Below are positions 8,320-52,204 of a DNA stretch of 64,000 nt, one piece after another (the first letter of the stretch is position 1; the number at the start of each line of letters is the position of its first letter). The notes beneath the pieces were generated by a model. It was given only the letters and a program-made list of their open reading frames with translations, was not told the DNA's origin and made no database searches. Source of the DNA: a virus (taxonomy: Duplodnaviria; Caudoviricetes); the IMG/VR virus record IMGVR_UViG_3300010163_000002, positions 64,001 through 128,000 of that record. One strand, written 5' to 3'. The position numbers were made by a program, and so were the translations under genes.

Positions 8320-10219
8320 ATTTAGGCATCCTTTCTTGTATAATACACATATTTTTAAGTTGAGTATTATTTATTATGCTACACATTGTACGTTGTGAAT
8401 TCTGCGGAATAACATTACACATAATTCTAAGACCGCTAATTGGATCATAAGAATATAAACCTCTCGCTGGAGCTTTAACTTTAGTAAAGTAATGTATAAT
8501 ATCATTATACATATCTTCATATCCTGCAAGATTAAAATATCTTTCGCAGAAGTTAAGTCTATCACGACATACAAAATCTTCAATAAACCATACAGATCTA
8601 TCAAAATACGGATTATTAAATCTATTTTCTTTAAGATCAATAATTTCAGGAAATATTACTTTTCCTCTTTGAGTATTTGGAGCCATATTGTTTTCATCTA
8701 CTATGGAGGGGTACAATGCTTTGTAATCGAAATCGTCTAAATTATCGCATACTAAAATGGCTCTATCATTTATCTTTATTTTAGGTTTATCACTAACCAG
8801 CACAGGATCTGCTACAAATGCTCCGGCAAATCCTACTTTCTCGTTACTTTTGTTTATATTATTTCCAAGGACGTATCCATATTCCCCAAAGTCCTTTGAT
8901 CCACGATTAACAAGGTAAGTTGTTTGTCTATGAACTTTAGCATATCTTGTATTTGTATTCATTGACTTTGAATATACAAAATCTATATCTCCAACCTTAT
9001 GTTCTACACATAGCTGAACTATAGTATCCATTACGTTATAAAATACAAATACTAAATAATTTAAATATGGTAGTTTGGCAAGCTGAGTTGTTATATGTGA
9101 ATAATCAAGCTTTCTTACCCCTGCAAATAATCCGCCAATATAATCAAGTTTGAATGATGCTACCGCTCTTTGACCTTTACGACGAGATGCAAATGTAATC
9201 AACTGATCAAGATATACTGTATAACATGATGCTTGAGCGTAGTCTCCTCTTTCTTCAAATTTATCAGCTCTTTTATCAATATAATAATAGCACTCTTTAA
9301 CCTTAAAATCCGAATGGCAAATTATGTCTTTAGGATCGTATCCTAAATTAATTATTCTTTGAATTAAATATGGTAAGTCGAATGCGATGTTCCATGCTAT
9401 TGCGAAATCGGGTTTCACTGTATTAATTACATTGAATGCATCATGAATTAATTTTATTTCATCATCATAAAATATAATCTGATACTGAAATTCATGTAAA
9501 CCATATCTATGCTCATTCTTCCATCCACCAACATTTTCCTGAACAAACTTCTTTAATCTTTCAGGGATGCCGTTCATATGTTTGAATTCATCTATTAAGG
9601 GATTACTATCGTTCTCCAATAATAAAGTATAAATTCTTTTATTCGCTTCATCTACTAAAGTTATTGCATTTACTGGGCACTCTCCTGGCTCGGGGAAATC
9701 TCCTTTCATGTCAATAATGTCAGTCTCTATATCGAAATATAATTTTGTTGGTTTGAATTGTTCATTCCTATATAATCGCGCAAACTCTTTTCTATAATAA
9801 TCCTCAATATGCATATCTGCAGCAAATACAGATTTAATTTTAAACAATTCATCGTTTGCTCTTGCATTACCATTTCTAAGATTGTCAAAAAAGAATTCAA
9901 GGCAACCAGTTTTTTCAGCAATATCTTTCTTTAAATTATTATACTTACAAGTTACTGGATGAACATATTTTTTCTCTATGCATAATTGATTATATTCTGC
10001 AGGAACCCCTTCATTAAGCATATAATAAGTATATTCTGGCTCATCTATATGCTGAACTTTCTTTTCCATAGTATCCATATCTTTATATATAATATCAATA
10101 CTATCTTTACCATATTTCCCTGTTGCAAGATCTTTTTGTGGTTTATGATATATTACGTTTAGTAGCGAAATATTGTCTCCAATATTATAGCCTTTAATAA
10201 AGGACTTATCAGTATTCAT
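8300..10219 (-). CDS. Family B DNA polymerase, N-terminal subunit (3'-5' exonuclease plus motif A) of a split enzyme
   Basis: ExoI FDIETD, ExoII WNIAFDLPY, ExoIII YNVMD, motif A DFDYKALYPSI; no motif B/C; start refined to MNTDK after AAGGAGG. Confidence 0.85.
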   Translation of the reverse strand: MNTDKSFIKGYNIGDNISLLNVIYHKPQKDLATGKYGKDSIDIIYKDMDTMEKKVQHIDEPEYTYYMLNEGVPAEYNQLCIEKKYVHPVTCKYNNLKKDIAEKTGCLEFFFDNLRNGNARANDELFKIKSVFAADMHIEDYYRKEFARLYRNEQFKPTKLYFDIETDIIDMKGDFPEPGECPVNAITLVDEANKRIYTLLLENDSNPLIDEFKHMNGIPERLKKFVQENVGGWKNEHRYGLHEFQYQIIFYDDEIKLIHDAFNVINTVKPDFAIAWNIAFDLPYLIQRIINLGYDPKDIICHSDFKVKECYYYIDKRADKFEERGDYAQASCYTVYLDQLITFASRRKGQRAVASFKLDYIGGLFAGVRKLDYSHITTQLAKLPYLNYLVFVFYNVMDTIVQLCVEHKVGDIDFVYSKSMNTNTRYAKVHRQTTYLVNRGSKDFGEYGYVLGNNINKSNEKVGFAGAFVADPVLVSDKPKIKINDRAILVCDNLDDFDYKALYPSIVDENNMAPNTQRGKVIFPEIIDLKENRFNNPYFDRSVWFIEDFVCRDRLNFCERYFNLAGYEDMYNDIIHYFTKVKAPARGLYSYDPISGLRIMCNVIPQNSQRTMCSIINNTQLKNMCIIQERMPKYEINNG

Positions 10220-10288
10220 GCATTTTACCTCCTTTAACATTATTTCATTGTGCACTGCTTTATATAGTTTTACCAATCAACACAAATC

Positions 10289-10300
10289 AACATCTTAGTA
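10289..10300 (+). promoter_or_regulatory. Late promoter AACA-N6-TA with no downstream CDS
   Basis: aaca-tcttag-ta. Confidence 0.6.
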
Positions 10301-10506
10301 AATGACTAAATAGCGATACCCTATAAGATGTTTAGTCATTTAATGCCATCTTGTAAAACGAACTTTGTGTGTTGTGACTGTATGGCCTTCCGTTGTTTTA
10401 TTTCGCTGGTATGTTTTTCATTCTGTATCCTCCGATATAGATAGATGCTGTAAATGTACGTGACTCCCGGAGCTGTAGGGTGGCTCCGGGGGTATATTTT
10501 GTTTTT
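10300..10506 (+). ncRNA. Candidate ~200-nt late small RNA
   Basis: Late promoter, 12-bp 5' hairpin (10299-10342), pyrimidine-rich linker with CCTCC, GC-rich terminator 10463-10493 plus T tract. Confidence 0.5.
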
Positions 10507-10514
10507 AGACCTCA

Positions 10515-10526
10515 AACAAATATGTA
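10515..10526 (+). promoter_or_regulatory. Late promoter AACA-N6-TA
   Basis: aaca-aatatg-ta upstream of the 10573 gene. Confidence 0.65.
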
Positions 10527-12164: not shown

Positions 12165-12536
12165 TTAAATTTTCCTTTCTTGTAAATTTGCTATTTGTCT
12201 TGCTATAATAGATGCCTCGTTGTACTGTTTGAGAAGTATATGAGTTCGAAAAGCATCATATAAACCATCTGCCATCAAATTCGCACATAAATTTTCCTCA
12301 TTATACCATTCTAATGGGCAATATATACATATGCCAGCGTACTTATGCGCCATAAATAGCGCATATTCGCAGCAAAAGCAGTGGTTATTTATTGGTTCGT
12401 CTAATTTTCTTATATTGGTCAGATATCTCATTTTAATCTCAACAGCAAATTCTGGCCTTATCTCTTCTATATTATCAGCAATCCAATTCCACATTTTTCT
12501 GTGTTCTTCGATAGCCTGTTCTCTGGTTAATTCCAT
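12165..12536 (-). CDS. Cys-rich hypothetical protein
   Basis: CFCCEY...CIYCPLEW...C; AAGGAGG RBS. Confidence 0.75.
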   Translation of the reverse strand: MELTREQAIEEHRKMWNWIADNIEEIRPEFAVEIKMRYLTNIRKLDEPINNHCFCCEYALFMAHKYAGICIYCPLEWYNEENLCANLMADGLYDAFRTHILLKQYNEASIIARQIANLQERKI

Positions 12537-12630: not shown

Positions 12631-15324
12631 TTAAAATTTCCATATTATATTACCCCCATATACAGTATTAGCACCATCTTTTAAAATAATAAGATCTGCC
12701 ATTTCTGTAGTAAGCTCGCTGTTATGCGATATCATAAAGCATTGTTCACACTGTAAGATAGCCATAATCCTATCTATTAATGTTAGGAAGTAAGACCTAT
12801 TAAATGCGTCAAGAGATTCATCCATCTCATCAAGCGATATTATATTGTATTTAGTTGCAGATTGATGAAGAATTGCATATGACAATATCATACTTATCAT
12901 AGACTTCTGTGCTGTTGACATAGAACTTATATCATCATGCATTAATCCAGAACCCAAACAAGGAATTCTAAATTCTTGTTCATTTATAACAAATGGCTGC
13001 AATACAAATTCTCCGTCAAATAGTAAAGACAATAACTCATTTGCTGTAGATATTATCTTATTCATATATAATTGCATGTATAAAGTCTGAATACCTGTAG
13101 ATGATGAAGAATAGTATCGTATCTTTTCAATCTTAGTATATTTATCATTATACTCTGCTAATTCAACTTTATAATCAGCAAGTAATATTAATGAATGCTT
13201 TATTTTGTTTCTTTCTTCATTTAACGTATTAATATCGTTTTCAACAGCATTCATGTTAGTATTTAATTTGGCCAAATTATCCTCAAGTGTATTTAACTCA
13301 GAAGTGTTGTTCTCTAACGTTGTTTTTACCTTAGATAATTCAGCTTGTTTTTGCTCAGAAGGAATCAATGAGTCATTTATCTTAAGGTATAGATCCCTAA
13401 CTTTAGAAATGGTAGTTTCGAGTGATATTATAGATTTAGATGTTTCATCTATATCCATATTTGTAGATTCTATTTCTGATGACACAGAATCTATTTTTCC
13501 AGATATTTTGTTTATATCATCAATTATAGAATCTATTATTTCGCCCTGGGTTTCATATATTTTATACTCAATCTGATATGTATGAAGATGATCTATAGCA
13601 ATTTTATATTCTTCAATCATGTTTCCACAATCTACAAATTTATATAATTCATCTATATCATCAAAACTATCCATTTGAGTTATTCTATATAAAAACGTTT
13701 GAGCAAAATCTTTTCTTACTGGTAATTTATTTATAAATGCTATTTTAGAATTTAACTCTCTTTCTATATTTTTTATACAAGATAATATATCCCCATACAG
13801 CGTATATTTATCTATAGTACTATCTATACCACATATATCTGCATTATATTGTGATATCGCTTCTTCTAATTTACGCATTTCATCTTCTGGATATTGGGTA
13901 TTTGCTTTAATTGCAGACTCTATATAAGGGCAAGAATCTATAGTGCATCCCAATGGTCTATTAACTAATTCTGATGCTATCTCTCTCTTTGCTCTAAATA
14001 TATTATATCTTTCATTAAGAGCAATTTCTTCAGATCTAAGTCTAGATAACTCATCTTTCATAGATGGAATTAATCTTATCTTATCTACAACTGCATTTGT
14101 ATTATTGATTACTTCATTTATATCTTCTATAGAATATGAACTTAAAATGTTATAAGCCATATCTTTAAGATATTTCAACGATTCCATTGCTGAATCAAAT
14201 TCTGCCCTGGATATAATATTTATATTTGATAATCTCATTTGCTTAAACACCGCCTCGTGTTCAGCAATAGTATTACTAAGTTCAGCAATCATTCTTTTTA
14301 ATTCTGTAAAATCGTAATCAGACTGAAGAGAATTTAACTTGGCTTGCTTTGATTGCAATTCTTTAACATCATACTCCCTTTCAGATAATAATACAGGAAT
14401 CTTGGATTTTAACGAGTCTAATTTATTATTTAAAGATATTAGTTGTTGTTCTAATGAATCTAGAAATGGCTTAACGTATTCTACTCCATTAATGCCGTAT
14501 TTGTTCATTTGTCCATATACAGAATTTTTTAAAATTTTTACAGTACCGTTAACATCTTTAAGATCTGATACTATTTGGTCATAATTATTATCTCTCAATA
14601 TATTTATATAGTCAGATATTCTAACCTTTACTGCAGCTATTGCTTCTATAGTCTGATTTTTTTCTTCTTCAAGTTTCTTTAATCTAGATTCAATATTACC
14701 AAGTTTAGCGTTAAGCTGTACTTCATTTCCCAAATAATCAATCTTGTATGTAAGAGAGTTGATTAATGATTTAAAAGTAGATGCTTTTTTGGTAAGATTC
14801 TTATAAATGGCATTATAAGTTTCCAGATTATGTATTATTGAATTAACCAACTTCTTACGTTCTGCAGGTTTGGAATCAACCAAACCTTTATTTTCAGATG
14901 TAAGCTTAGACAATGACAAGTAATTAGAATCCAAATTAAATTCTTCAAATAAAATATCTCTACATGATGAAATATTACCATTCGGATTTAATTCTACTAA
15001 AGTACCATTTATTGTTTTGGATATATATCCCTTTGTTGTACCCCTACCGCTATTGGTTATGGGATGAATATACTTAATAACATAATCTATACCATTATTA
15101 CTTAAAACTACAGTTTTTCTTGCCTCTGCATTAGGAATAAAATTATCATTTGTATCTGGATTTGGACTTATGGCATTTAATAAAGTAGACTTACCAGATC
15201 CATTTTTACCTCTAATAATAACTTTATTTGTAACGCATTTTGTAAAATCTATATTAATCTGAGTTAATCCCATGCCATTATATATTCCGATATAATTACA
15301 CAATTCTATGGATTTATACCTCAT
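12631..15324 (-). CDS. sbcC: SbcC/Rad50-like SMC ATPase
   Basis: Walker A GKNGSGKST, long coiled coils, central CxxxxC hook (CTIDSC), signature MSTAQ, Walker B SLDEMD, ISH. Confidence 0.9.
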   Translation of the reverse strand: MRYKSIELCNYIGIYNGMGLTQINIDFTKCVTNKVIIRGKNGSGKSTLLNAISPNPDTNDNFIPNAEARKTVVLSNNGIDYVIKYIHPITNSGRGTTKGYISKTINGTLVELNPNGNISSCRDILFEEFNLDSNYLSLSKLTSENKGLVDSKPAERKKLVNSIIHNLETYNAIYKNLTKKASTFKSLINSLTYKIDYLGNEVQLNAKLGNIESRLKKLEEEKNQTIEAIAAVKVRISDYINILRDNNYDQIVSDLKDVNGTVKILKNSVYGQMNKYGINGVEYVKPFLDSLEQQLISLNNKLDSLKSKIPVLLSEREYDVKELQSKQAKLNSLQSDYDFTELKRMIAELSNTIAEHEAVFKQMRLSNINIISRAEFDSAMESLKYLKDMAYNILSSYSIEDINEVINNTNAVVDKIRLIPSMKDELSRLRSEEIALNERYNIFRAKREIASELVNRPLGCTIDSCPYIESAIKANTQYPEDEMRKLEEAISQYNADICGIDSTIDKYTLYGDILSCIKNIERELNSKIAFINKLPVRKDFAQTFLYRITQMDSFDDIDELYKFVDCGNMIEEYKIAIDHLHTYQIEYKIYETQGEIIDSIIDDINKISGKIDSVSSEIESTNMDIDETSKSIISLETTISKVRDLYLKINDSLIPSEQKQAELSKVKTTLENNTSELNTLEDNLAKLNTNMNAVENDINTLNEERNKIKHSLILLADYKVELAEYNDKYTKIEKIRYYSSSSTGIQTLYMQLYMNKIISTANELLSLLFDGEFVLQPFVINEQEFRIPCLGSGLMHDDISSMSTAQKSMISMILSYAILHQSATKYNIISLDEMDESLDAFNRSYFLTLIDRIMAILQCEQCFMISHNSELTTEMADLIILKDGANTVYGGNIIWKF

Positions 15325-15404: not shown

Positions 15405-15719
15405 TTAACTCCTGCCTTTGTTATTTTTGCTTAATCCATATCCAAACTGTTCTAATACTGCTTTATCAATTACAGGTATAGGGAAACCATTTCTCCAATC
15501 CATAATGAATTTTCTTCCACATCCCATACAAATCATATATTTTACTTCGTTTTGTAGTAATACATGTTTTATATCTCTTAACGAATGCCCGCTATCTATA
15601 AGGCCTTTATATCTTATACACGTATTGGAGTCATTTACAGCAAATGATAAAAGATCTCTACCACATTTCGGGCATATATATGGAGTAATTACAGTGCACA
15701 TTTCTTTCAATTCATTCAT
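15405..15719 (-). CDS. Zinc-ribbon protein
   Basis: CPKC...CMGC. Confidence 0.75.
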   Translation of the reverse strand: MNELKEMCTVITPYICPKCGRDLLSFAVNDSNTCIRYKGLIDSGHSLRDIKHVLLQNEVKYMICMGCGRKFIMDWRNGFPIPVIDKAVLEQFGYGLSKNNKGRS

Positions 15720-17180: not shown

Positions 17181-17488
17181 TATTCATCTACCTCCATTGG
17201 ATTTTTAATATTAGCATCACTCAGATGCTGTTCAAAATATTCTTCTCCATATAATATACTTCTTAATTTTGTTAGCGGAATGAAACCATACGCTGTAGGC
17301 ATCATTCTAAAAATTGCATTGCAATTATTGCATATTCCAAGAGCATCATGATTCATGATTTTATAAGCAATAACCTCACCGTCCATATTAGTTAGATAAT
17401 TAGTTGTTTGTATTTCATTTACAATAAATTGTTTATGACCACATATAGGGCACGAGCCTATTGGCACCATTCTGCACATTTCTTTCAA
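17180..17488 (-). CDS. Zinc-ribbon protein
   Basis: CPIC...CNNC; start refined to TTG at 17488 after GGAGGTGA. Confidence 0.7.
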   Translation of the reverse strand: MKEMCRMVPIGSCPICGHKQFIVNEIQTTNYLTNMDGEVIAYKIMNHDALGICNNCNAIFRMMPTAYGFIPLTKLRSILYGEEYFEQHLSDANIKNPMEVDE

Positions 17489-17803: not shown

Positions 17804-19576
17804 TCATTCTTCCGTATAAAACATTAACCCATCTCCAAACAAATCTATCCCAGGAATAAACTGTTCTTGAGATTGAGTGTACAGCTCATAATCGATTAAA
17901 GTCTTAGCAATTTTTATGCAATCATTTAACCTATCATTATTACTTTGTTTTCCTGTAATTGAAGTTACTATACTGCACATTTCCTTCTTGGCGTTCATTT
18001 TTCTATATATATCAATAACCTTCGCAAGCTCGGATTCCCAGCTAGATGGTTCTTCATATTCTGTAAAATGCCCATCATGCAATTGTACTAACGGGCATAT
18101 AGTTCCGCTAATTCCCGGATCTGAATTTGACGAACTGTCAATATCAACTCTACCGAGATGCGACGGATGAATAGATCTATATGCATTCGATATTGCATTT
18201 GCTTTTTCGCCTATTCCAGATACACCTTTATAGGTATATTTAAGTGCAGTTATAGCATCAAGATCGTTTACACAATCTTTATAATTAACTAGCTGGCATT
18301 TTATTATTGCATTAATCAGATACATTGGCGGTATTCTTATAGCCTTTCTTATTGTTTCAAGATTAGCTTTATCACCCTTATCAGAAATACGATAAATACC
18401 AGTAGCCAATTTTGATGCATAGTATGAAGCTAAATACTCAGCCCATCTTACTTTTTTAGTTGATATATCAAGATTTTCTTTGCGTCTTAAGCTATTGAAT
18501 TCATACATCATCCATCTCAATACGCAATATACAGTATCTTTATTTTCTGGCTGAAGTTTAAGATCCTCCTTGGTCATAATATCATATATGAATTCCAAAG
18601 AGCCAAGTATGTTATAACCTTTTTCGTACATACTATCAAAATCTTTAACCGTAAACTCCGCTCCTAATGATTTAATCCATTCTCTACCATTGAATATATC
18701 GTTAAACCTCATATTACTGGTTTTAAACATAATATACATGGTATATACAAATGATTGAGCCACCTGTACAGAATCATATATCATTTTATTTATTACGATA
18801 TATATACTATCCCTTATGGGGAATATATAATTATCTTCTCTGCTATACCCATCTGCGTTATTAACTACAAAAATCCCCGTTATTCCAAGAAACTTCATAG
18901 CACCATAATAACCCATTTTAGCACCAATATATTTCATAAGAAGAAGAGACTTCTTAAACATATTGGCAATGAAATATGTGCATGGTATAGAATCTCCATT
19001 TATATCGGTGATGGTATTTGTGTATCTGTAAACCCTTATGGGCATGAATACAGTCTTAAATGTGATAGACTGTTTCTTTGCATTTTTAGATGCGCTATTA
19101 TTATAAGTACTAGCATCTACAATCTGGTACATCGCTGAGTACATATTTCCATTCAACCTGAAATAGAAATGGTTAACAATTCTTGGTATTGCGATATATA
19201 CTGTTATACGATCGCTAACTAAACCATTTTTCTTTTCAAATATTTGGATATAATAGTCCACTTTAATGATTTTCAAATCAGAGTCTCTTAAATTAATGAA
19301 CCCATAAGGATTATCTCTTGCCTTTTTCTCATTTGGCTTTTTGCCTTTATTGATTACGGATTCTTCATATTCCCAAAGTACATGATTAACGTCATCGTAA
19401 TCATCAATTACTTCAAAATTCTCGACCTTTATTGTAAAGGTCGAATCTCGTTCACACGAATAGATTACTTTTCTCAGTGCATCTATAAGATCTTCATCAT
19501 GCCTATTAAATAATTCATCATTAAACTTAGGCCTGAATTGATCATTATACATGTGTATTAATTCTCGTTGTTTCAT
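17804..19576 (-). CDS. Non-virion multisubunit RNA polymerase, beta N-terminal subunit
   Basis: YFRLNG; RSIHPSHLGRVDIDSSSNSDPGISG resembles beta [23 protein letters not shown]. Confidence 0.85.
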   Translation of the reverse strand: MKQRELIHMYNDQFRPKFNDELFNRHDEDLIDALRKVIYSCERDSTFTIKVENFEVIDDYDDVNHVLWEYEESVINKGKKPNEKKARDNPYGFINLRDSDLKIIKVDYYIQIFEKKNGLVSDRITVYIAIPRIVNHFYFRLNGNMYSAMYQIVDASTYNNSASKNAKKQSITFKTVFMPIRVYRYTNTITDINGDSIPCTYFIANMFKKSLLLMKYIGAKMGYYGAMKFLGITGIFVVNNADGYSREDNYIFPIRDSIYIVINKMIYDSVQVAQSFVYTMYIMFKTSNMRFNDIFNGREWIKSLGAEFTVKDFDSMYEKGYNILGSLEFIYDIMTKEDLKLQPENKDTVYCVLRWMMYEFNSLRRKENLDISTKKVRWAEYLASYYASKLATGIYRISDKGDKANLETIRKAIRIPPMYLINAIIKCQLVNYKDCVNDLDAITALKYTYKGVSGIGEKANAISNAYRSIHPSHLGRVDIDSSSNSDPGISGTICPLVQLHDGHFTEYEEPSSWESELAKVIDIYRKMNAKKEMCSIVTSITGKQSNNDRLNDCIKIAKTLIDYELYTQSQEQFIPGIDLFGDGLMFYTEE

Positions 19577-21083: not shown

Positions 21084-23366
21084 TTATAAAGTTATATTAT
21101 TATGCTCTATAAACTGCTGTTTAGTGAATATAGGAATTCCTAAAGTTTTTGCCCTTGTTGCTTTGGATGAAGTTGTATTCAAATCATTAACAATTAAAGC
21201 CGTTGTATCTTTTGTAATGCCATACGTATCACTAGCATCAAATCCATGTTCTACAAGAAGCCTAATATATTCAGAATCTCTGAAACCTGATAATACAACT
21301 CTAGGCCCCGTTGGGGCTGTCCCTTTGCTATTAATGATATGAATATTATTAATAATACATGCTAAATCTTCAGCATATAACAATAACCCGTCAGCTATAG
21401 TACTAGCTGTTTTGGGGCCAATTTTAGGAATATCTTTAAGCCTATCATAATTGTCAATGGATAATAATTCTTCCAATGTGTATACATTAAAAATCACTTT
21501 CCATGTTTCATCAGCTATACCATCAAACCCCATAGCAGACATAATTCTATAATCCATATAATCTTCAGTTTTTAACCTATTTATACAGTTCAGTAGATTA
21601 GCGCTGTTTAATGGGCCAAGAATATCAGTTTGCTCATTGGTAAGATTTATAAGCTGATTGAATGATTTTAGCTTAAGAGTCCTAACAGTTTCTTCTGCAA
21701 AATCCTTAAACCCAAGCCTATCAAGCATATCAACCATCTTCATAGTCAATCTTTCAGGGCAATGAGTATTTGGACATTTAGCAGATTTGCCAGATTCTGA
21801 TATTTCTATAGGAGCACCGCAAAACGGGCAATTTGTAATAAATTGCAACGGTTCATTCTTATTATCCCTATTGTGTTGGTTATCTGGTTTAGTAATATAT
21901 GTGATTACTTCATTCACATAGTCAATATTGATTTCATCACCAATAGCAAGATTTAATTCCTTAAATCTTTTAAAGGAATGAATAGTTTGTTTTGTATGGA
22001 TACCTCCAATAAATTCACATGGTTTAAAATGCACCATTGGAATTATAGTACCAGTTTTACCAACTGAATACGTGTAACCCAAGAATATAGTTCTAGCACT
22101 CTTTGGATTAAATTTTATAGCCATAGAATATTTATTAACAGAGTTTTCTCTACCAAGCATTTGCTTCTTATTTGAATCTGTAAATGATATTACTACACCA
22201 TCTATCATATATGGTAAAATCTTTCTAACCTCTTCTGCAGACTCTGTAAATTGTTTAACCTGATATAAGATAGACTGATAATCCCCATAAAATGTACAGA
22301 ATCTATTATACTCTCCAGAATTATAATACTTATTCAGAAAATTTAATTCTGTAATTCTTGGCATATCCAATGATGTAGCAAGAGGTATTAGAGTTATATA
22401 ATCAATAAATCTATTACCATCACTAGCTCCTAATATTCCTATAATAGCATTTCTTGCATTCTTGTATGATTTTTGTCTGATTTGTGATAGCATATCAAGA
22501 TTGTAATACGTTATAACAGCCTCAAATTTAATACCAAATTTAATATCCTTTGGCACATCTTTGGCATTATAAAATTTATACCCGCCAAATATAGGAGTCA
22601 AATCTGTAGCTACATTTTCTGCAGTATCTCCTCTGCTTAATGCAGATATTATTGTGTCTCCACATACTTCTGCTTCTACAGATACTCCATCGTATTTGAG
22701 TTCTCCAACCATCTCAAATTTTTCCCCGGGATATATAGCTTGTTTTTCAAGACATTTATGAATAAAATCTCTCTCAAATACATTTACAGATGGAGTATTA
22801 AACGCATCGGCCTTAATAGCATCATTATTTAATACAAATTTACACTTATCAAGAGTACCAACAAGCTCCGGATATTTGTGCTCTGTATTAATCAGTCTTT
22901 TTGTAATTGGCCCATTATCTATAAAACACATATTCTTAGGTCTTACATTTGATAACGGGGTATGCTGTGACCATATATCTCTAATATACATTTTTGAATC
23001 CATGTCATCTAGAGCAACGCACATAACCTTTTCATCAATAATTTCATTTTGAGGCCTCTCCTCAAATATTACAGGAGGGGCCCCTACTTGATAGTTTTTA
23101 TCATATTTCTGATAAATAACTATTAATCTATCATAAACTCCATCATCTAGAGGGTTAATTGAACAACTAGTATTGTTATAAGCAATATTGCTTATTCTTA
23201 ATATTAAATCAGCAATCATAATTTGGTTCTTTGACCAATTTGGGTTCTCTATTAATTCTAATGCAGTATAACTTATACTTGCGCTAACCTTATAGTCATC
23301 TATAACACTAAGGTCTCCTGATTTGAGAGCTTTCAATATCATCCTCAGGTTTTCTATTGCCATCAT
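21084..23366 (-). CDS. ligA: NAD-dependent DNA ligase
   Basis: Ia domain LDDGVYDRL, ELKYDG adenylation motif, SRGD, IDGVV, Zn finger CPFC..CPNTHC, HhH, BRCT; exact start uncertain. Confidence 0.92.
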   Translation of the reverse strand: MMAIENLRMILKALKSGDLSVIDDYKVSASISYTALELIENPNWSKNQIMIADLILRISNIAYNNTSCSINPLDDGVYDRLIVIYQKYDKNYQVGAPPVIFEERPQNEIIDEKVMCVALDDMDSKMYIRDIWSQHTPLSNVRPKNMCFIDNGPITKRLINTEHKYPELVGTLDKCKFVLNNDAIKADAFNTPSVNVFERDFIHKCLEKQAIYPGEKFEMVGELKYDGVSVEAEVCGDTIISALSRGDTAENVATDLTPIFGGYKFYNAKDVPKDIKFGIKFEAVITYYNLDMLSQIRQKSYKNARNAIIGILGASDGNRFIDYITLIPLATSLDMPRITELNFLNKYYNSGEYNRFCTFYGDYQSILYQVKQFTESAEEVRKILPYMIDGVVISFTDSNKKQMLGRENSVNKYSMAIKFNPKSARTIFLGYTYSVGKTGTIIPMVHFKPCEFIGGIHTKQTIHSFKRFKELNLAIGDEINIDYVNEVITYITKPDNQHNRDNKNEPLQFITNCPFCGAPIEISESGKSAKCPNTHCPERLTMKMVDMLDRLGFKDFAEETVRTLKLKSFNQLINLTNEQTDILGPLNSANLLNCINRLKTEDYMDYRIMSAMGFDGIADETWKVIFNVYTLEELLSIDNYDRLKDIPKIGPKTASTIADGLLLYAEDLACIINNIHIINSKGTAPTGPRVVLSGFRDSEYIRLLVEHGFDASDTYGITKDTTALIVNDLNTTSSKATRAKTLGIPIFTKQQFIEHNNITL

Positions 23367-25569
23367 TTTCATCATCACCAACCTTTTTACACATTACTTT
23401 AAGGCATAATGGATTCTTGCTTTGACGTTCTGTCATTGCTGCATTATACATCATGGGAAGCTCGTCAAATCTACCCATGATATCCCTTATATTAGTTTTT
23501 GGCGCAAATCTGCTGGGCGGTACTACTTTAGCCATAACATTTAATACCATCTGTTTGCGTTTCTTTGGAATCTTATTGAATACCAATTCAAGACCCATTG
23601 TCTCCATCAATGCATTGATTATTTCGGCATTTCTGTTCTTTGACTGATGATCAAGCCTAATATCAATATTGTATGGATCTCCTGTTAATAGCTGTTCTGT
23701 TAGTCTTCTTCCCAATGGAGATGAAGAATATAACATAAGAAGCATTACAACGTACTGTACGCCTAAATGCATCATATCGCCAGCTTCCATAAATCCGAAC
23801 ATAATCGGAGTCTTTGTAAACTTGGCCTCATACATCTTATTAGCTTTAGAACGAGTATTAAGATTCTTAAGATTGGTAGCTGAAAGTGATGTTACAGAAA
23901 ACTTCTCTTCCGCATACTGCTTCAATCTATAATGATAAATCTTGCCTGCAGACATTGGTCTACGGGTTTGTACCATTCTTACATTACCATTAGAATCAAC
24001 CATTGGTACCTTGACCTTATACTGTTTAATCCATGAGAACTTTCTGTATATATCGCTTAAGGTATCAATATTAATTGTTGTGGTAAATGGCTGAATACTT
24101 AATATAATACCATCATCTTCAAAAAGACTATCAATAAATACTTTAGCCTCAAATTCATCATCGAAATTAACGTTCTCTTTGAAGAAGTTTGCTTGGGCTG
24201 GATCGACCATGTTAACAAAGTCATACCACATATAGCATTTCTCTGTAGCACTTAATACTTCAAGTTTAAAATAATCAAGTATCCTCATACCAATAAACGA
24301 TAAAGATTGCTCATTTAACTGGCCAATATTTTCTCTGTTTATACATGTAGATTGATTCTTAACTACCTCAACTCTTTTGCCATTATCAAGCATTGGCATC
24401 ATTTCATCAGGAAGAATCTGTGATACAACACCTTTACCACCATATCTATCAGACATCTTATCACCAGCGCACATTGGTAGTGCCTGAACCGTTGTTACTT
24501 CCATAATAACATGGTTAAACTGTTTGCTATCGAAATAGCCTTTGCCAAGTATTGCATCTCTACAGGTTCCATAAAGCTTCTTAAGCTCATACGATAGCAT
24601 ATGGCTTTCTGTCATTGCAAGTGGGCCTACTATATCATTGACTTGCCTACAGAAATTCATATATTGATTATAATAGAACAAAAGCTGTTCATTATATCTT
24701 GACCCGGTAAGAGCTTCCGGATTATTTGTAAATACGTTTATATCCGCTACAATACCATCCATTGTGATATTTCTATCTGATAGCATTGTATCTCTCAAAT
24801 TAGATTGAGACATTGTGAATAGAATATTATCATTTTCTATTCTTCTTATTGCACAGAATACACCATCCTTTACTTCTTCTCCAATATTAGGAAAGGTTTT
24901 ATAAATGCCATTACTTCCATATAAATCAAGAAGAATATCATTATCATTTATACTGATAGAATTATTCTTGACTAATACAGTTTCAAGTTTCTTAGCTGCT
25001 GTTTCTGATATTATAACAGAGTCCTCCATATTTTGAGCGCATGATAAATATAATGTAAGAAGATTAACACCATTCATCTTATTAGTATATTCATCAAATC
25101 CAATGGACGTTTTAATGACATCTTTATTATGCAGAATATCTCCAACTTTAAGATTATCAAGTCTTTCATTATTCCACCAGAAACCATATGACTCTGTATT
25201 ATAGTTATATGAAACTCTTTCTATCACATCATACATTCCAGTGTCTACATCCTGAACTATTAGATAGTAATGTTTATTTGTAAAATCGAATTTATTAATC
25301 TTAAATAAGATTTTAAGATTTTTATCATTTTCCACATACGAATTAGATTTTCTGCCAAATTCCGTTTCGTATCCGGTTTGAATAATTGGTACCTCAGCAT
25401 TATTAAGTACCATGTGCTGTTCTGTATGGATAGAATACATCAATGCTCGCGAACCAGAGTTAGCTGGTTTAAATGGCTGCATTAGCGTTCTACCCAAAGC
25501 ATAATTATAATCTGGTAGATCTTTTGTATATTCATCTACTTGTTGCATTATGTTAAGATCGTTACCCAT
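23308..25569 (-). CDS. Non-virion RNA polymerase, beta C-terminal subunit
   Basis: SRALM, NMEDSVII, GDKMSDRYGGKGVVS, YRLKQ and FGFME beta motifs. Confidence 0.9.
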   Translation of the reverse strand: MGNDLNIMQQVDEYTKDLPDYNYALGRTLMQPFKPANSGSRALMYSIHTEQHMVLNNAEVPIIQTGYETEFGRKSNSYVENDKNLKILFKINKFDFTNKHYYLIVQDVDTGMYDVIERVSYNYNTESYGFWWNNERLDNLKVGDILHNKDVIKTSIGFDEYTNKMNGVNLLTLYLSCAQNMEDSVIISETAAKKLETVLVKNNSISINDNDILLDLYGSNGIYKTFPNIGEEVKDGVFCAIRRIENDNILFTMSQSNLRDTMLSDRNITMDGIVADINVFTNNPEALTGSRYNEQLLFYYNQYMNFCRQVNDIVGPLAMTESHMLSYELKKLYGTCRDAILGKGYFDSKQFNHVIMEVTTVQALPMCAGDKMSDRYGGKGVVSQILPDEMMPMLDNGKRVEVVKNQSTCINRENIGQLNEQSLSFIGMRILDYFKLEVLSATEKCYMWYDFVNMVDPAQANFFKENVNFDDEFEAKVFIDSLFEDDGIILSIQPFTTTINIDTLSDIYRKFSWIKQYKVKVPMVDSNGNVRMVQTRRPMSAGKIYHYRLKQYAEEKFSVTSLSATNLKNLNTRSKANKMYEAKFTKTPIMFGFMEAGDMMHLGVQYVVMLLMLYSSSPLGRRLTEQLLTGDPYNIDIRLDHQSKNRNAEIINALMETMGLELVFNKIPKKRKQMVLNVMAKVVPPSRFAPKTNIRDIMGRFDELPMMYNAAMTERQSKNPLCLKVMCKKVGDDENDGNRKPEDDIESSQIRRP

Positions 25570-25642: not shown

Positions 25643-25855
25643 TTAGATTATTTTGCACATAGTCTTTTTTCTTTCATCGCATTTTCTTCGAATGAAATTA
25701 TTAACACTTTCTCTAGGAATTTTCCATACAGTGCCAATCTTAAATGCATCTATGTCTCCACTATTCAACAAATCATATGCTGTATTCTTTCCAATACCAA
25801 GCATATTGCAGAGCCCATCTATTTCAATAAGTGCAGGCTGCTCTTTAATTGTCAT
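25643..25855 (-). CDS. Excisionase-like (HTH_17/MerR-type) DNA-binding protein
   Basis: LCNMLGIGKNTAYDLLNSGDIDAFKIGTVWKIP. Confidence 0.85.
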   Translation of the reverse strand: MTIKEQPALIEIDGLCNMLGIGKNTAYDLLNSGDIDAFKIGTVWKIPRESVNNFIRRKCDERKKTMCKII

Positions 25856-27234: not shown

Positions 27235-28158
27235 TTATGGCACATATATACCTTCATACGTTTTTAATGCATATACAGCATCATTAATTCTGCTGTAATC
27301 GTCTGACAACCGCTGCATTGAAAATCTTATTTTCTTTTGATTATTAACCATGTCATAACCAGATGCATAATTAAGAAGTGTAGATCTAATCATAGCAGAT
27401 GGTAAATCATTAAGTATGTCAAGAATAACAAGAGATAGAGTAGAGTCAACTTCCTCTATCTCAGGGGTCACCCATCCATTCTCATTATCATCATATTCCG
27501 GTATAACGTCGAACATAACATATTGGAATATTTTAACCCAGTCTGCCATAATATTATAAAGGGTTCTAAATATTTCCATAATCATATCATGTGACATTAG
27601 TACCTTAGGTTGATTTATAATAGCAAAATCAACTCTTCTAACACAAATATTTAAATCCAAATCAGAGTATCTTGCTATTAAAAGTGAGTTAGCAAAAGTC
27701 CCACTTAATCCAAGCCCTAACAATCTTGGAAGTTGCCCTCTATTGATTATAGAACTTATCTTAAGCATTCTATCAGATACCATCTTATCCCTGTTAGATG
27801 GATTTAATGTAATATACTGATAGCATATCATATTGATTTTAACAATATGATCTTTTTCAAATGTCGGTATTGAAACTATTACATCTATAAAAGCTTCAAG
27901 AAATCTTACATCTGTAAAACACTGTACATAAACATTTACATCCTGAGACCCAAAGAAAATATTGTTAAGAATAACATGAATATTATTCCTTATAAAAGAT
28001 CTCAATTCGTCATTTCCCATATTTGGAACATCATAAATGCTTTTAAGTAAAATATTATTATTGAATCTTGGCGAATTTGCCGGAACGACTTTCACCATTT
28101 CTCTCAAATGAGTTCTATCGTACTCAGCTTTCTCTGCCCAATATTTTTCAAAAGCCAT
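27235..28158 (-). CDS. Hypothetical all-helical protein next to tubulin
   Basis: 307 aa; own early promoter (28187-28195) and AAGGAGG RBS. Confidence 0.8.
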   Translation of the reverse strand: MAFEKYWAEKAEYDRTHLREMVKVVPANSPRFNNNILLKSIYDVPNMGNDELRSFIRNNIHVILNNIFFGSQDVNVYVQCFTDVRFLEAFIDVIVSIPTFEKDHIVKINMICYQYITLNPSNRDKMVSDRMLKISSIINRGQLPRLLGLGLSGTFANSLLIARYSDLDLNICVRRVDFAIINQPKVLMSHDMIMEIFRTLYNIMADWVKIFQYVMFDVIPEYDDNENGWVTPEIEEVDSTLSLVILDILNDLPSAMIRSTLLNYASGYDMVNNQKKIRFSMQRLSDDYSRINDAVYALKTYEGIYVP

Positions 28159-30819: not shown

Positions 30820-31701
30820 TTAATTTATAATAGTGCACATATCTCTACCATATTTAGTATCAGCACATCTATACTGGCTGTTAGAAAAATATGGTATTAA
30901 ACCATATCTAATAGGATTATTAGCTGTAGGTTTAACCGGATAATATGTAACGATTGATGTATCTATTTCAAAATTTAAACCCGATCTTCTATAGAATAGA
31001 TTATATTGAGGAACTTGCCCGCTAGTATATTTATGTGTAGCATAATCGTTGTGTGGATAATATTCTCCATTTTTTAAACTATTTGAATACTTGGATATAT
31101 CGCTATCAGGGAATTTTTTCATTTTAACATATCCTGGAGCATATATTCTTTTCCATGGTTCTATATTTCTTTGCCTATCGTATAAATCAATTATATATGG
31201 CATATGGTCATATAAATATTCGTCAGTATATCCCTGAATATGCGGCAAATCCGCTAAAAAATACTCAAAACACAACCATCTGTCACATACTATAGTCCCA
31301 AGAGCCCCAATATATGGGAATGTGCTACATCCGGGATTATAGCATGCGCGAATCATATCTTTCCACATCATCCATGCTTTAGGATTATCATCTCTCGATG
31401 CTCTGCCCATATACGAAGTATCATAATCCAAATTTGGTATGTACCATTTTAAGTTGCCTTTTATAATGCTATCGTATGTAATAATAGAATCAGATGCTAA
31501 TAAAATAAATTCGCGATTGTATATATCCACCCTAAATAATGGGCATTTACATTCCCCAATTTCTGGATCTAATATTCTCTGGTCTCTTCTAGATATTTCT
31601 TTAATATGTACAATATATCTCTTACCAGAATAATAAATTTGATTTAGTTGTATCGGATCTCCTAATTTAATCTTGATTGGTTCAATAATAATGTTTTTCA
31701 T
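30820..31701 (-). CDS. Protein with degenerate HNH-homing-endonuclease-like domain
   Basis: WKDMIRACY...YIGALGTIVCDRWLCFEYFLADL; the IDRID/HNH catalytic segment is not intact. Confidence 0.6.
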   Translation of the reverse strand: MKNIIIEPIKIKLGDPIQLNQIYYSGKRYIVHIKEISRRDQRILDPEIGECKCPLFRVDIYNREFILLASDSIITYDSIIKGNLKWYIPNLDYDTSYMGRASRDDNPKAWMMWKDMIRACYNPGCSTFPYIGALGTIVCDRWLCFEYFLADLPHIQGYTDEYLYDHMPYIIDLYDRQRNIEPWKRIYAPGYVKMKKFPDSDISKYSNSLKNGEYYPHNDYATHKYTSGQVPQYNLFYRRSGLNFEIDTSIVTYYPVKPTANNPIRYGLIPYFSNSQYRCADTKYGRDMCTIIN

Positions 31702-41877: not shown

Positions 41878-41889
41878 ATTCTATTTGCT

Positions 41890-46960: not shown

Positions 46961-47377
46961 CTATTTTAACTCATTCATTGATATATTACCATCCATGAAT
47001 GATTCCATACCGACTTTAGCTGAATTATCTACTTCTAAACTAATATCGTTAATACGTTTAAATTCTTCCTCATCCCAATCACCTTTGATATATTCATCAA
47101 TATCAAAGCCATCATCATAGAAGTCTCCCACATATTTCATAAACGCATAAATTGATTTACGCTCATTCAATTTGCAGCTTTCTACAAGAATAAAACTACG
47201 TTCGAAATTTACACTTTCGAAAATGAGACAATCCTTAATCAGCTCGTATGCTGCCGTTCTACCTGTAACAATGTCCCATAAATCTGCAGCATCATTTAAT
47301 GCCAAGCATATTAAGTACTGTTTTAACTCAGGATTTTTCTGAGTATTATCAATAATTCTTACCATTTCTTTACCCAT
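46961..47377 (-). CDS. Hypothetical early protein
   Basis: 138 aa; early motif at 47425-47433. Confidence 0.75.
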   Translation of the reverse strand: MGKEMVRIIDNTQKNPELKQYLICLALNDAADLWDIVTGRTAAYELIKDCLIFESVNFERSFILVESCKLNERKSIYAFMKYVGDFYDDGFDIDEYIKGDWDEEEFKRINDISLEVDNSAKVGMESFMDGNISMNELK

Positions 47378-47448: not shown

Positions 47449-48651
47449 TTACGCTTTTACGTATATTAATGCGGTATCTGCTCTAGATGCACCTACAAGA
47501 TTTAATGCATTTTGGCTAGTTCTTGAGCAATGTTCTTCTATATAAACGACTTTACCCCATTGCCCTCCTTGGCTTAGGTATGTCGTTATGGCATAAGCGA
47601 ATTCAAATAAGTTACCTTTAGTATATTTATTATTTTTTATTGTGTTTCTTATAGTATAATCTGAAGTAATGTATTTATAGTTGCATCTGGAATTAAAGAA
47701 TATAGCGTTTGGAGCCATTTCAGGAGCAAATGTCATACTAAATAATTCCCCATCATAAGATGAAACATCTGGATTCGTTAATACTTTACATATTAATCCA
47801 TTTGTTAGATTTATTTCTGTACCATTGCTTAATGACACCCCTTCAAGCCAATTATTTGATCTAGATACTACTTTTTCTCCAAATTGAGGTAATTCTGATG
47901 TATATCCTTTAAGTGAACGTACACGAGCATTTAATTCATCTCTTGTTTTATTAGTACCGCATATTATTATATCGGCCCATAACAACATATCGTCAGTTAA
48001 TTGATTTCTGTTAATTACCAGGCTATTACCATAATAACCATTTGGTATGCCGTATCCTTGACCAACGCATGTGGCTATATAATTGATATCATCCTTACCA
48101 ATTTGTCTCATGCATTTTGTTAATCTTAGTATTTTGCCACCATTAAGAAATGCTGGTTCGTCTCCTATAGGTGGTAACTGATGTTCGTCACCACATACAA
48201 GAATTTTTATACCAAACTCTTTAATACATTCGCCTATACTTGCTGGCAAGCAATATCCTTCATCTATAACTATAAGTTCTATTTTATCATCAAGCTTATA
48301 ACGTTTACAAAACTTTTGTACCATAATTGGTACATTAAGAAGATTATCGTACATTATATGCCCGTATTTATCTCTCATTGGTTCTCCCACAACATTAAAT
48401 ACCCATGAATGGGCTGTCTTTGCTGTAGGAAAACCTTTCATACGCATTACTAAAGATGCTGTTCCTGTAAAGCTCATAGGCGCAACTTCAGTGTTTAAAT
48501 CTAATCCTAAGGTTTTAACTATTTCCATTAGCACTACAGATTTTCCTGCTCCTGGCACTCCAGCATATTGAAATACTTGATCGCCGCTAAGATGAAACCA
48601 TTTTACAGCTTCTCTCACTATAGTTTTCTGTTCATCATTTAATGTAAACAT
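47449..48651 (-). CDS. SF1B helicase (Dda/RecD-like)
   Basis: GVPGAGKS, SFTGTAS, IDEG, GDEHQLPP, MRQ, YAITTYLSQG. Confidence 0.88.
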   Translation of the reverse strand: MFTLNDEQKTIVREAVKWFHLSGDQVFQYAGVPGAGKSVVLMEIVKTLGLDLNTEVAPMSFTGTASLVMRMKGFPTAKTAHSWVFNVVGEPMRDKYGHIMYDNLLNVPIMVQKFCKRYKLDDKIELIVIDEGYCLPASIGECIKEFGIKILVCGDEHQLPPIGDEPAFLNGGKILRLTKCMRQIGKDDINYIATCVGQGYGIPNGYYGNSLVINRNQLTDDMLLWADIIICGTNKTRDELNARVRSLKGYTSELPQFGEKVVSRSNNWLEGVSLSNGTEINLTNGLICKVLTNPDVSSYDGELFSMTFAPEMAPNAIFFNSRCNYKYITSDYTIRNTIKNNKYTKGNLFEFAYAITTYLSQGGQWGKVVYIEEHCSRTSQNALNLVGASRADTALIYVKA

Positions 48652-49934: not shown

Positions 49935-49955
49935 TAAATTTGGAGGTGTAATATT

Positions 49956-50429
49956 ATGGATGCTAGATATGCATATCAAAAACCAGAAAATACATATACT
50001 CTAGATCAATTTATAGCATGTCAATCAGATGAATCATTCTGTTATGCAAATACATCATTCATAGACCAAATTGATAATATTAAATATTGTGCGTATAATG
50101 TGGCATCTGATTATATTGATGAACTGAGAGATGAATACTGCGTTAATGTGGCACTTTCTGAAAATGACGTTATTAGATATAAATATAGACCTAAATTATT
50201 AGCCTATGATGTATATGGCAATCAAGAATTATATTTCTTGATATTAATTATAAATGATATTTGCTCTACCAAAGATTTTACTATGACAAATTTAAAATTG
50301 CCAAATAAAGAAAATATGAAAAATATTTGCACTGCAATTTTTAATGCTAATAGAAAAGATATATTGCTATATAATGATGGCAATATAAGAACAAGTCAGC
50401 AGATAAAAGAAGAGCTAAAAAACATTTAA
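49956..50429 (+). CDS. Baseplate wedge protein (T4 gp53/LysM-like)
   Basis: YRPKLLAYDVYGNQELYFLILIIN. Confidence 0.7.
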   Translation: MDARYAYQKPENTYTLDQFIACQSDESFCYANTSFIDQIDNIKYCAYNVASDYIDELRDEYCVNVALSENDVIRYKYRPKLLAYDVYGNQELYFLILIINDICSTKDFTMTNLKLPNKENMKNICTAIFNANRKDILLYNDGNIRTSQQIKEELKNI

Positions 50430-50442
50430 TTTTGAATTTATA

Positions 50443-50469
50443 ATCCCCATAGCCAATGGCTATGGGGAT
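50443..50469. terminator. Bidirectional terminator
   Basis: atccccatagcc-aat-ggctatggggat. Confidence 0.8.
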
Positions 50470-50473
50470 GTAT

Positions 50474-52204
50474 TTATGCATTTACTATTCTACACATATT
50501 ACCTTTATAGTACTTGTAATGAATATTCTGATTATTATGCATAATCATATACATATTCATAGCAGCAAATGCCGCTGCATTAGCAAACATATTTGTCTCG
50601 CTTTCAGGGAATTTAACATCATTAAATTCTACTATGCGGCCAACTGTGCCATTATTTGTACCCATTCCAGGCAATTCTATGCCTTCACGCATTGTTGTCT
50701 TATGCACAGGCAAAGTTGAGTAGATATCTTCAACAAATTTAATAGTGTTCTTAATATACGGCATATAGCATGTATATAGATCGTTATTAATATAATACCT
50801 ACTTTTAACCCTTTGCATTCCAAGAAATTTATTACCTTCTTTATCATACTCTGGTGCAATAAGACAAATCCAATCACTATTTTCAAGAATAAGGTTAGAT
50901 TCGCCGACATTAGATCTACCAATCAATCTTACCAGATCTGCCTTATTCTTTATACGTGCTTCATCAACAGAATTTGTTGCCACTCTATTAAGCTGAGACG
51001 CAGTAATAACTGGTATGTTTTTAAGTGTAGCAAATGTCTTAAATTCATTAACTACAGCTCCAAGTTGTACTCTTAGATCTCCTCCAAATGTACCCTCAAC
51101 AGATCTGATACGTTTGAGATAGTCCTGCAGTACACATATGACCTCATAGCCTTCATCTTCGAGATCTTCTGTCATTGTATATAAATATGATGTATCTACA
51201 GATAAATTAGGCTTGAATTTTATTATGATATCTATAGGATCATTAGAAGATAAGTGTAAATTACCTTTATTAACAAGTGCGTCCATAATTTCATCTTCGG
51301 AATAATTAAGCATCCCTTCACCAACGCACATGCTAAACAATCTTTCTACTGTTTCTTTAACTCCATTTTCCATTACTAAGAGTACTACGCAAGGCCTTTT
51401 AGTTGGATCTGCGCATTTGTATTCTCTATTATAACGTTTAAGTTGAATGGCCATATCAAGTAGAGTACTAGATTTACCTTCACCGGGTAATCCTAATATT
51501 GTATATACCCTTCCCGATTCAACGCCACCACCAGTCATAAGATTCAAAGCTTGAGTACCAAATTTAAGTTTGTTAGACGGAGAAGATAATTGTTTATACG
51601 TGCTTATCATAGCTTCAACATATCTATCTCCGGATAATGAGAAAGTAATATCTTCCGCTGCTTCTGCTCTGGCTCTTCTGAATTTAACTTGCATGGAGTT
51701 TATCCAGTTTTCAACTTCTCTTAATATTGGCCCTCTGTTAATATAATCAGTAGATTTAAATTTAGTTAATAATGACAAACCTAAATCAATATCATTATAT
51801 ACTATTGCATCTTTAAGTATTTGAGATACAGATTGGTTTACCCAATTAACCTCGTTATTATCCAATTCTGAAAAATCATCCAAAACATTTATACCTAAAC
51901 CACCGGTAATTTGTCTTAAAATCATCTTTCTATTAGTTAGATTATATTTTAATCTTGCTTCTATACCTTTATTGATAAAGTCTATTCTAGCAAGTCTTTC
52001 TTGATCATTATTATAAACATTCATATCTATGGTGAGGAATAAATTACGCAAATTAATCACATTTCCTCTACGAATGTTACGATTTTCAGAAAGTATATAT
52101 GAACACATCAAATCTAATTCTGTGATATCGAAATTTACATCTATTTTAAAATTTTGATTTTTTATTGGTGAATTAGGTTGATACCTCTGCCTTCTATCTT
52201 CCAT
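50474..52204 (-). CDS. dnaB: DnaB-like replicative helicase
   Basis: GLPGEGKS, VMEN, QDYL, TASQLNR, VKSR; start refined to MEDRR. Confidence 0.88.
   Translation of the reverse strand: MEDRRQRYQPNSPIKNQNFKIDVNFDITELDLMCSYILSENRNIRRGNVINLRNLFLTIDMNVYNNDQERLARIDFINKGIEARLKYNLTNRKMILRQITGGLGINVLDDFSELDNNEVNWVNQSVSQILKDAIVYNDIDLGLSLLTKFKSTDYINRGPILREVENWINSMQVKFRRARAEAAEDITFSLSGDRYVEAMISTYKQLSSPSNKLKFGTQALNLMTGGGVESGRVYTILGLPGEGKSSTLLDMAIQLKRYNREYKCADPTKRPCVVLLVMENGVKETVERLFSMCVGEGMLNYSEDEIMDALVNKGNLHLSSNDPIDIIIKFKPNLSVDTSYLYTMTEDLEDEGYEVICVLQDYLKRIRSVEGTFGGDLRVQLGAVVNEFKTFATLKNIPVITASQLNRVATNSVDEARIKNKADLVRLIGRSNVGESNLILENSDWICLIAPEYDKEGNKFLGMQRVKSRYYINNDLYTCYMPYIKNTIKFVEDIYSTLPVHKTTMREGIELPGMGTNNGTVGRIVEFNDVKFPESETNMFANAAAFAAMNMYMIMHNNQNIHYKYYKGNMCRIVNA

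Follow-up and report, generated by a model that had tools for sequence, protein, structure and literature searches.

In phage T4, the clamp protein gp45 binds short tails of the gp43 polymerase, of the ligase and of the late-transcription proteins gp33 and gp55. Clamps also serve transcription in phage Mu, which uses that of its host for late transcription (PMC12867686). Phages with a divergent split family B DNA polymerase (PolB) lack a classical clamp according to Iyer et al. (PMC7824862), and in the Chimalliviridae, which are without an identifiable clamp, a clamp-derived domain of the protein Rhc binds the split polymerase and pulls down subunits of the non-virion RNA polymerase (nvRNAP), Rhc being needed for both replication and late transcription; the work on Rhc mentions no linear tag (bioRxiv 10.64898/2026.10.01.755736). 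Here we describe a 64,000 nt stretch of a tailed-phage genome (hereafter the window; bases 64,001–128,000 of IMG/VR record IMGVR_UViG_3300010163_000002, which is 248,905 bp long with direct terminal repeats at its ends), in which a short peptide of the type MCxIV recurs on replication and transcription proteins of unrelated families, and in which a 206-aa protein with the predicted fold of a sliding clamp is encoded beside the tagged polymerase.

The phage is a distant relative of the Bacillus phages AR9 and PBS1: 52 of its proteins have AR9 homologues, the exonuclease half of its PolB is about 30% identical to AR9 g132, and no near relative was found among cultured phages. A total of 253 genes was called over the whole genome (G000) with a simple caller based on codon usage and Shine-Dalgarno sequences. 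It was compared with relatives reached via the DnaB helicase (G001, 259 kb; G002, 236 kb; and one fragment), with a 266 kb relative that has orthologues of 55–70% identity and the gene for the clamp-fold protein (G004), and with a relative that is without this gene (G007).

A preliminary description of the window, made from the letters and their open reading frames, had reported such peptides on about 11 proteins, and all of them are present, on the minus strand and at the codons listed there. The pattern [KR].M[CV].[IV][IV] occurs 11 times, compared with a mean of 0.4 in per-protein shuffles, and none of 200 shuffles reaches 11, so that the enrichment it had proposed to check for is borne out. 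In the 253-gene proteome, MC.[IVLM][IV] occurs 16 times vs 1.3 in shuffles, and a position-specific scoring matrix built from the copies gives 28 hits in 24 proteins of the whole genome vs about 2 in shuffles, 14 of these hits being in 11 proteins of the window. The consensus is K-[KR]-[VEDI]-M-C-[RKST]-I-V-[DN]-[KN]. Copies are concentrated at protein ends: in three genomes, 27 of 38 copies of MC.[IV][IV] are no more than 20 residues away from one (13% expected; p = 3e-16), and an unbiased search for terminal patterns returned MC.I, MC..V and K.MC on top.

That the peptide has no function, and results from chance, from common ancestry of the tails (paralogy, mobile cassettes) or from a DNA or RNA signal at gene ends, can be considered extremely unlikely, and has already been largely refuted by the shuffle, frame and codon tests. 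The remaining top patterns of the unbiased search do represent paralogue families (e.g. MELTREQAIEEHRKMWNWI), as such an explanation would have it; however, the carriers of the tag come from unrelated Pfam and PHROG families, they share nothing beyond 7–9 residues, and the residues are kept while the codons vary. Of 18 matches to ATGTGY NNN RTN RTN at the DNA level, 16 read in the coding frame of a gene, one is in another frame and one is antisense, with none in intergenic sequence; from this distribution, the motif is one of protein, not of DNA. A promoter or terminator signal at gene ends is ruled out by the same frame and strand test. The preliminary description is supported in that this is a tag of protein, placed on loose terminal extensions of replication and transcription proteins that are unrelated to each other.

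Genome-wide there are 24 carriers, 11 of them in the window. The PolB of this phage is split, as in AR9 (g132/g152) and the Chimalliviridae (DNAP-N/DNAP-C), into an exonuclease half (window 8300–10219, minus strand) and a catalytic half (G000 51312–53444, plus strand); the former has three tandem copies spaced by 12 residues and the latter one internal copy. Two helicases, the divergent DnaB and a superfamily 2 (SF2) helicase homologous to AR9 g156, are tagged, as are the NAD-dependent ligase (in its N-terminal linker), two HNH-type nucleases, a helix-turn-helix (HTH) protein, Zn-ribbon proteins and several proteins of unknown function. Four subunits of the nvRNAP are carriers: the homologues of AR9 g105 (beta N), g089 (beta C) and g154 (beta' C), and a gp226-like subunit (phrog_25005) whose gene adjoins that of the g227 homologue. 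No tag was found in gyrase A/B, UvsX, primase, SbcC, the PIF1-like helicase and the Cas4-like nuclease of the same genome, nor in its tubulin, GroEL and the N-part of the virion RNAP beta' subunit. That plus-strand proteins are untagged, as the earlier remark on late plus-strand virion proteins suggested, holds inside the window only, six plus-strand carriers being encoded elsewhere in the genome. The ligase copies and the beta C peptide KQMVLNV, also noted before, are present but weak in this genome; ligases of relatives hold better copies at the same place (PVNMCFLV and KKVMCTVV). Internal MV-type matches at window positions 20002–20022 and at G000 178217–178237 were not counted as tags, being in mid-protein and without a basic flank.

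The preliminary description had asked whether orthologues carry an equivalent tag, and they do: in about 20 families the orthologues have it at the matching end. G001 and G002 show the same excess, with 18 matches vs 4 and 1 in the reversed control. The C-terminal end of DnaB reads K-K-x-M-C-x-I-V in three relatives while the linker before it diverges, and the triple repeat of the PolB tail, which lies beyond the region homologous to AR9 g132, is likewise kept in relatives. Where an AR9 homologue exists, tags fall outside the aligned region, in extensions. Where the tag seems to be lost, a degenerate copy is in most cases present, for example KNLMCKKV at a C-terminal end and MIEMVNIV (in an orthologue of the 102-aa Zn-ribbon protein) and MQGKVMARIV at N-terminal ends. 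Identity in the tag core is 86 of 120 compared residues, and in the 20 residues next to it 258 of 480; for 29 of the identical residues the codons differ. As judged from these alignments, the tag is under purifying selection at the protein level.

Orthologous tags with V or A in place of Cys (MVRII, MVKIV, MARIV) bear on whether this residue is a chemical site, that is a redox switch, a metal ligand or a position of covalent modification, one of the options raised in the preliminary description. Cys is the commonest residue after Met (38 of 38 copies in the seed set, although by construction) and is invariant in the alignment of the Zn-ribbon family; nevertheless, besides the V and A of orthologues, whole lineages have T, G/A/V, F/Y or A/V/I there. 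A chemical role is therefore disfavoured and in our opinion very unlikely. Because V or A, and elsewhere T or G, can stand in for it, the Cys is taken, on these substitutions, to be needed for its small apolar side chain and to serve neither as ligand nor as nucleophile.

In G004 there is no excess of MCxIV. Instead, [AVC]IKR[VI] occurs 8 times (0.4 in shuffles), and orthologous carriers have it at the corresponding ends: DnaB has ...NVIAIKRVAG, the beta' C subunit carries ...KKVLAIKRVDNS and the beta C subunit ...PIVIKRVKKDD, the gp226-like subunit starts with MIVIKRVKK..., and the Zn-ribbon proteins carry MIEVCRKIV and QLAIKRI, the latter in the orthologue of the 102-aa protein. An unbiased terminal-pattern search in G004 places IKRV on top. 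Further lineages, read on contigs with divergent homologues of the clamp gene, have the same triple repeat in the polymerase tail in the forms M-C-x-K-V, M-T-x-x-V, M-[GAV]-x-K-[IV] and L-[FY]-x-x-[VI]. A second split is seen in the exonuclease half of PolB in G002 and G004, which places the tagged tail on its own protein of some 149 aa; G004, and in part G002, also has a shorter catalytic half.

Because at least 10 unrelated proteins have been rewritten in concert, one shared and co-evolving phage reader is indicated, in line with the single binding partner suggested previously, and we consider it likely, from these sequence comparisons, that one phage-encoded receptor reads all tags. The concerted rewriting also argues against a conserved host hub or protease. 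By its place at termini and its layout, basic and then hydrophobic, the tag resembles C-motif 2 and the N-motifs of ClpX, and one carrier has a weak metallopeptidase-like match. A rival explanation is hence a degron or adaptor signal by which the carriers are handed over for timed proteolysis, either to ClpXP, ClpCP or Lon of the host or to a protease of the phage. However, such a signal would be expected to be stable across related phages, while MCxIV, IKRV and MCxKV are found in close relatives, and a conserved host machine would not drive a switch between phages with orthologues of 55–70% identity. Several tags are also located 28–58 residues from the end or within linkers, and triple tandem copies on an essential polymerase are hard to explain by degradation. 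A degron is thus improbable.

For the receptor itself, the best candidate is the 206-aa protein. The AlphaFold2 model, built from 13 homologues, has a mean confidence (pLDDT) of 89.7 and 49 Foldseek matches at E <= 0.001, those listed being sliding clamps (PCNA, 9-1-1, the clamp of African swine fever virus and the E. coli beta clamp); VIA-align gives Z values of 9–10.6 over 174–193 of the 206 residues, T4 gp45 included. A two-domain protein with the predicted PCNA/beta-clamp fold is hence encoded in the same genome as the tags. The protein has no match in Pfam, PHROG or cultured phages. This was one of four local hub candidates named in the preliminary description; the three others are without support, Pfam and PHROGs having given nothing useful for them, and one (27235–28158) is itself a weak carrier. 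The possibility that the protein forms a heterotrimeric clamp with two other 206-aa proteins (16560–17180 and 19573–20193) was rejected, as hhalign found no similarity.

The clamp family has 316 representatives at E <= 1e-3 among metagenome cluster representatives. At 19 of 29 PolB-related viral loci, the clamp gene is immediately downstream of the polymerase gene, and all polymerase tails that were read beside a clamp gene (17 of the 19 loci and four further clamp loci) carry two or three tags; at two split-polymerase clamp loci a fragment was read and not the tail piece. In contrast, the tails are untagged at all of the 10 loci without a clamp gene, where PolB is at most 38% identical. The clamp-family profile has no match in AR9, G007, phiKZ, Goslar and Staphylococcus phage SA1, and there is no MCxIV-type excess in AR9 and four other cultured relatives. 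G007, which is without the clamp gene, shows no excess of MCxIV or IKRV. Its DnaB and two other proteins (genes 25384–27027, 33315–34436 and 98458–99600) have acidic tails with D-L-F or L-F-D-F, such as ...EDSSLFDFSSSLTK, which by their sequence may belong to a different tail system resembling that of T4 or of single-stranded DNA-binding protein (SSB).

Of several possible explanations, we favour one in which replication, repair and late-transcription proteins bear a short docking tag on an N- or C-terminal extension that is flexible. This tag would have the form [KR]-[KR/x]-x-M-[C>V>A]-x-[IV]-[IV], in most cases with D, N, P or K as the next residue, and a single phage-encoded receptor, co-evolving with the tags, would read every copy. 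The most likely receptor is the PCNA-fold protein encoded right after the tagged polymerase gene. It would act as a toolbelt that holds the split PolB by its two or three tandem tags, together with DnaB, the SF2 helicase, the ligase and the HNH nucleases, and also the nvRNAP, several subunits of which are individually tagged, and small Zn-ribbon and HTH factors. We infer that the clamp would form a ring on DNA and would couple late transcription to replication. The clamp is proposed as receptor because its gene adjoins that of the polymerase, because it co-occurs with tagged tails, because the client list (polymerase, ligase, helicases, nucleases, transcription factors) is like that of clamps, and because there is precedent; on this evidence, the chances that it is the receptor are in our estimation about even. 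The complete picture, in which a loader-less PCNA-like hub of a large uncultured AR9-like branch organises the replisome and the late RNA polymerase by a private, fast-evolving address code that is rewritten on some 20 clients at once, is more tentative, and we regard it as possible but rather doubtful.

Several results weigh against the clamp as receptor. No AAA+ clamp loader was found, as PF13177 has no match and the sole match to PF00004 is a thymidylate kinase; the loader may be divergent, or the clamp may act loader-free as does UL42. The tag has neither an aromatic pair nor a Gln anchor and fits no known clamp-binding consensus (PIP box, QL[SD]LF, LDFLF); one sister lineage has the form L-[FY]-x-x-[VI]. 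On the branch with the tag switch, the clamp shows no acceleration of its own, its G004-to-G002 similarity ratio ranking 68 of 132, and no column among 15 clamp sequences tracks the tag class. In phyletic profiling, 60 proteins share the presence/absence profile of the clamp, which is too many to single out a receptor, and about 51 of the others are untagged; clamp and tag may thus go together because of one event in evolution. Separate tags on each nvRNAP subunit would also fit a targeting signal.

These points leave room for a process where the tag docks to, or targets, a different phage hub (a scaffold, an adaptor of a factory or compartment, an SSB-like protein or an import factor), the clamp being merely another part of the replisome. 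The concerted switch requires one co-evolving phage receptor, whichever protein this is; the rate-shift and column tests do not single out the clamp, some 51 untagged core proteins have its phyletic profile, four separately translated nvRNAP subunits are each tagged as if delivered individually, and a tubulin homologue is encoded. On the other hand, the import or compartment signal suggested in the preliminary description fits poorly, as gyrase A/B, UvsX, primase, SbcC, the PIF1-like helicase and the Cas4-like nuclease are untagged, although a DNA compartment would be common to them. According to a 2026 review, AR9-like phages are also without chimallin homologues (PMC13282480), and tandem tags on the polymerase tail adjoin the clamp gene in every clamp locus where the tail was read. 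We consider a different hub conceivable but on balance unlikely.

The proposed clamp system is close to that of T4 and RB69. As with gp45, a phage-encoded two-domain protein with PCNA fold of about 200–230 aa (VIA-align Z 9.5 vs the gp45 chains 6drt_A and 3u61_F) occurs together with polymerase, ligase and transcription proteins whose flexible ends bear short peptides, and one motif is common to replication and late-transcription proteins. It differs from T4 in that no gp44/62-type loader was found and in that the tag is without an aromatic LDFLF-type core. Clients are far more numerous (about 24) and include the helicase and several subunits of a phage multisubunit RNA polymerase, the polymerase has tandem copies, the tag sequence is rewritten between close lineages, and the receptor is a candidate only.

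Compared with Rhc (Goslar gp190, phiKZ gp155), the setting is similar, namely a jumbo phage with split PolB, divergent DnaB and nvRNAP, and the PCNA/9-1-1-like module of Rhc contacts the polymerase and is recovered together with nvRNAP subunits, the two partners that are also proposed for the 206-aa protein. In contrast to Rhc, the latter stands alone, its 206 aa being wholly clamp fold with no RNase HI domain, and while Rhc contacts the thumb of DNAP-C by a folded surface, a linear tag would be involved here. A profile of 57 members of the clamp family found nothing at E <= 10 in the genomes of phiKZ and Goslar; a remote homology to phiKZ gp155 and Goslar gp190 at the level of the fold is possible.

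Similar to the PIP box and APIM of PCNA and to QL[SD]LF of the beta clamp, the tag is a peptide of 5–8 residues at an N-terminal end, at a C-terminal end or in a linker. In the PIP-box and QL[SD]LF systems one pocket serves many clients, and in many PIP-like motifs basic residues flank a hydrophobic core, as they do here. The differences are that the receptor would be phage-encoded and lineage-specific and not a conserved cellular hub, and that the Gln anchor and the aromatic pair are missing. The herpesvirus proteins UL42 and UL44 provide a further parallel, being viral PCNA-fold proteins that work without a loader and bind a family B polymerase at its extreme C-terminal tail; in contrast to the hub proposed here, they have little more than this polymerase as client and are not known to be served by a proteome-wide tag.

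A literature search found no description of the tag or of the clamp family. We conclude that the tag is a previously undescribed, proteome-wide docking peptide, and that the tag-clamp system as proposed is a variant of the clamp-client principle. It stands out by the tag sequence, by how many clients there are and of what kind, several RNA polymerase subunits being among them, by tandem tags on the polymerase, by the rewriting from lineage to lineage and by a loader that appears to be missing. The tag points to the likely clients of a clamp-fold family that has had no annotation, and this family adjoins a polymerase type said to lack a classical sliding clamp (PMC7824862; bioRxiv 10.64898/2026.10.01.755736). 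If the link between the two holds, it would explain the processivity of these phages and suggest that the nvRNAP is tethered to replicating DNA, and the variants MCxIV, IKRV, MCxKV and L[FY]xx[VI] would represent natural orthogonal peptide-receptor pairs for studying the co-evolution of a hub with some 20 clients. Under a private address code, if it exists, late transcription would be coupled to replication as it is in T4, and related phages that infect the same cell, as well as their homing nucleases, would have machineries that stay orthogonal. The tag is also an aid for annotation, as it flags small unknown proteins as parts of the replication or transcription machinery.

Table 1. Tag copies and the candidate receptor in the window (positions count from the first base of the window; gene coordinates in brackets).
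Feature	Position	Strand	Description
PolB exonuclease half (8300–10219), C-terminal tail	8336..8428	-	tags RIMCNVI, RTMCSII, KNMCIIQ, 12 residues apart
206-aa PCNA/gp45-fold protein, candidate receptor	7699..8319	-	start overlaps polymerase gene end by 20 nt
Divergent DnaB helicase (50474–52204)	50483..50503	-	GNMCRIV, 7 residues from C-terminal end
nvRNAP beta N-part (17804–19576; AR9 g105 homologue)	17966..17986	-	KEMCSIV in C-terminal extension
nvRNAP beta C-part (23308–25569; AR9 g089 homologue)	23380..23400	-	KVMCKKV in tail
nvRNAP beta C-part, second copy	~23521–23541	-	NVMAKVV, weaker
NAD-dependent ligase (21084–23375)	22917..23030	-	weak KVMCVAL and KNMCFID, N-terminal linker, upstream of adenylation domain
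70-aa HTH_17 protein (25643–25855)	25646..25666	-	KTMCKII, exact C-terminal end
293-aa nuclease-like protein (30820–31701)	30826..30846	-	RDMCTII near C-terminal end
104-aa Zn-ribbon protein (15405–15719)	15687..15707	-	N-terminal KEMCTVI
102-aa Zn-ribbon protein (17180–17488, TTG start)	17465..17485	-	N-terminal KEMCRMV
138-aa protein (46961–47377)	47351..47371	-	N-terminal KEMVRII
307-aa protein (27235–28158)	28084..28104	-	weaker REMVKVV at residue 21

For the 104-aa Zn-ribbon protein, residues 1–12 have a pLDDT below 50 and no secondary structure in an AlphaFold2 model; because this model is poor overall (pLDDT 57), it is weak evidence that the N-terminal tag is unstructured. The 307-aa protein has an orthologue in G001 with LVEMVKIVPA at the same position, while none was seen in G002.

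The untagged genes of the window mentioned above, all on the minus strand, encode an SbcC/SMC-like ATPase, a UvsX/RecA-like protein, gyrase A and B, a PIF1-like helicase and a Cas4-like nuclease (12631–15324, 25877–27106, 38083–44193, 47449–48651 and 55545–56294). The paralogue family that was retrieved by the terminal-pattern search comprises five small proteins (window 12165–12536, minus strand; G000 12862–13221, 50872–51249, 53551–53973 and 53903–54637) with near-identical N-termini (MELTREQAIEEHRKMWNWI...), most of which also have a similar C-terminal end (...ARQIANL). This is a case of true paralogy and not of a linear tag.

Directly 3' of the clamp gene is the gene for an 811-aa protein (window 5212–7647, minus strand) that matches a virion structural family (phrog_3004, E 1e-20) and thus represents a virion gene inside a block of replication genes; its place beside the clamp gene is kept in distant relatives. 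The tubulin homologue is a 394-aa protein (window 28266–29450, minus strand) with a match to the tubulin/FtsZ GTPase domain (PF00091, E 1.7e-6) that is below the curated cut-off. It represents a PhuZ/TubZ-like gene in an AR9-like phage, is untagged, and adjoins the gene for the weakly tagged 307-aa protein. A thymidylate kinase (PF02223, E 1.4e-26; window 53840–54511, minus strand) and a protein of the thymidylate-synthase family (PF00303, E 1.9e-59; G000 180806–181663, minus strand) are also encoded, and because of these genes the DNA of the phage may contain T or a modified pyrimidine, unlike that of AR9, which contains uracil.

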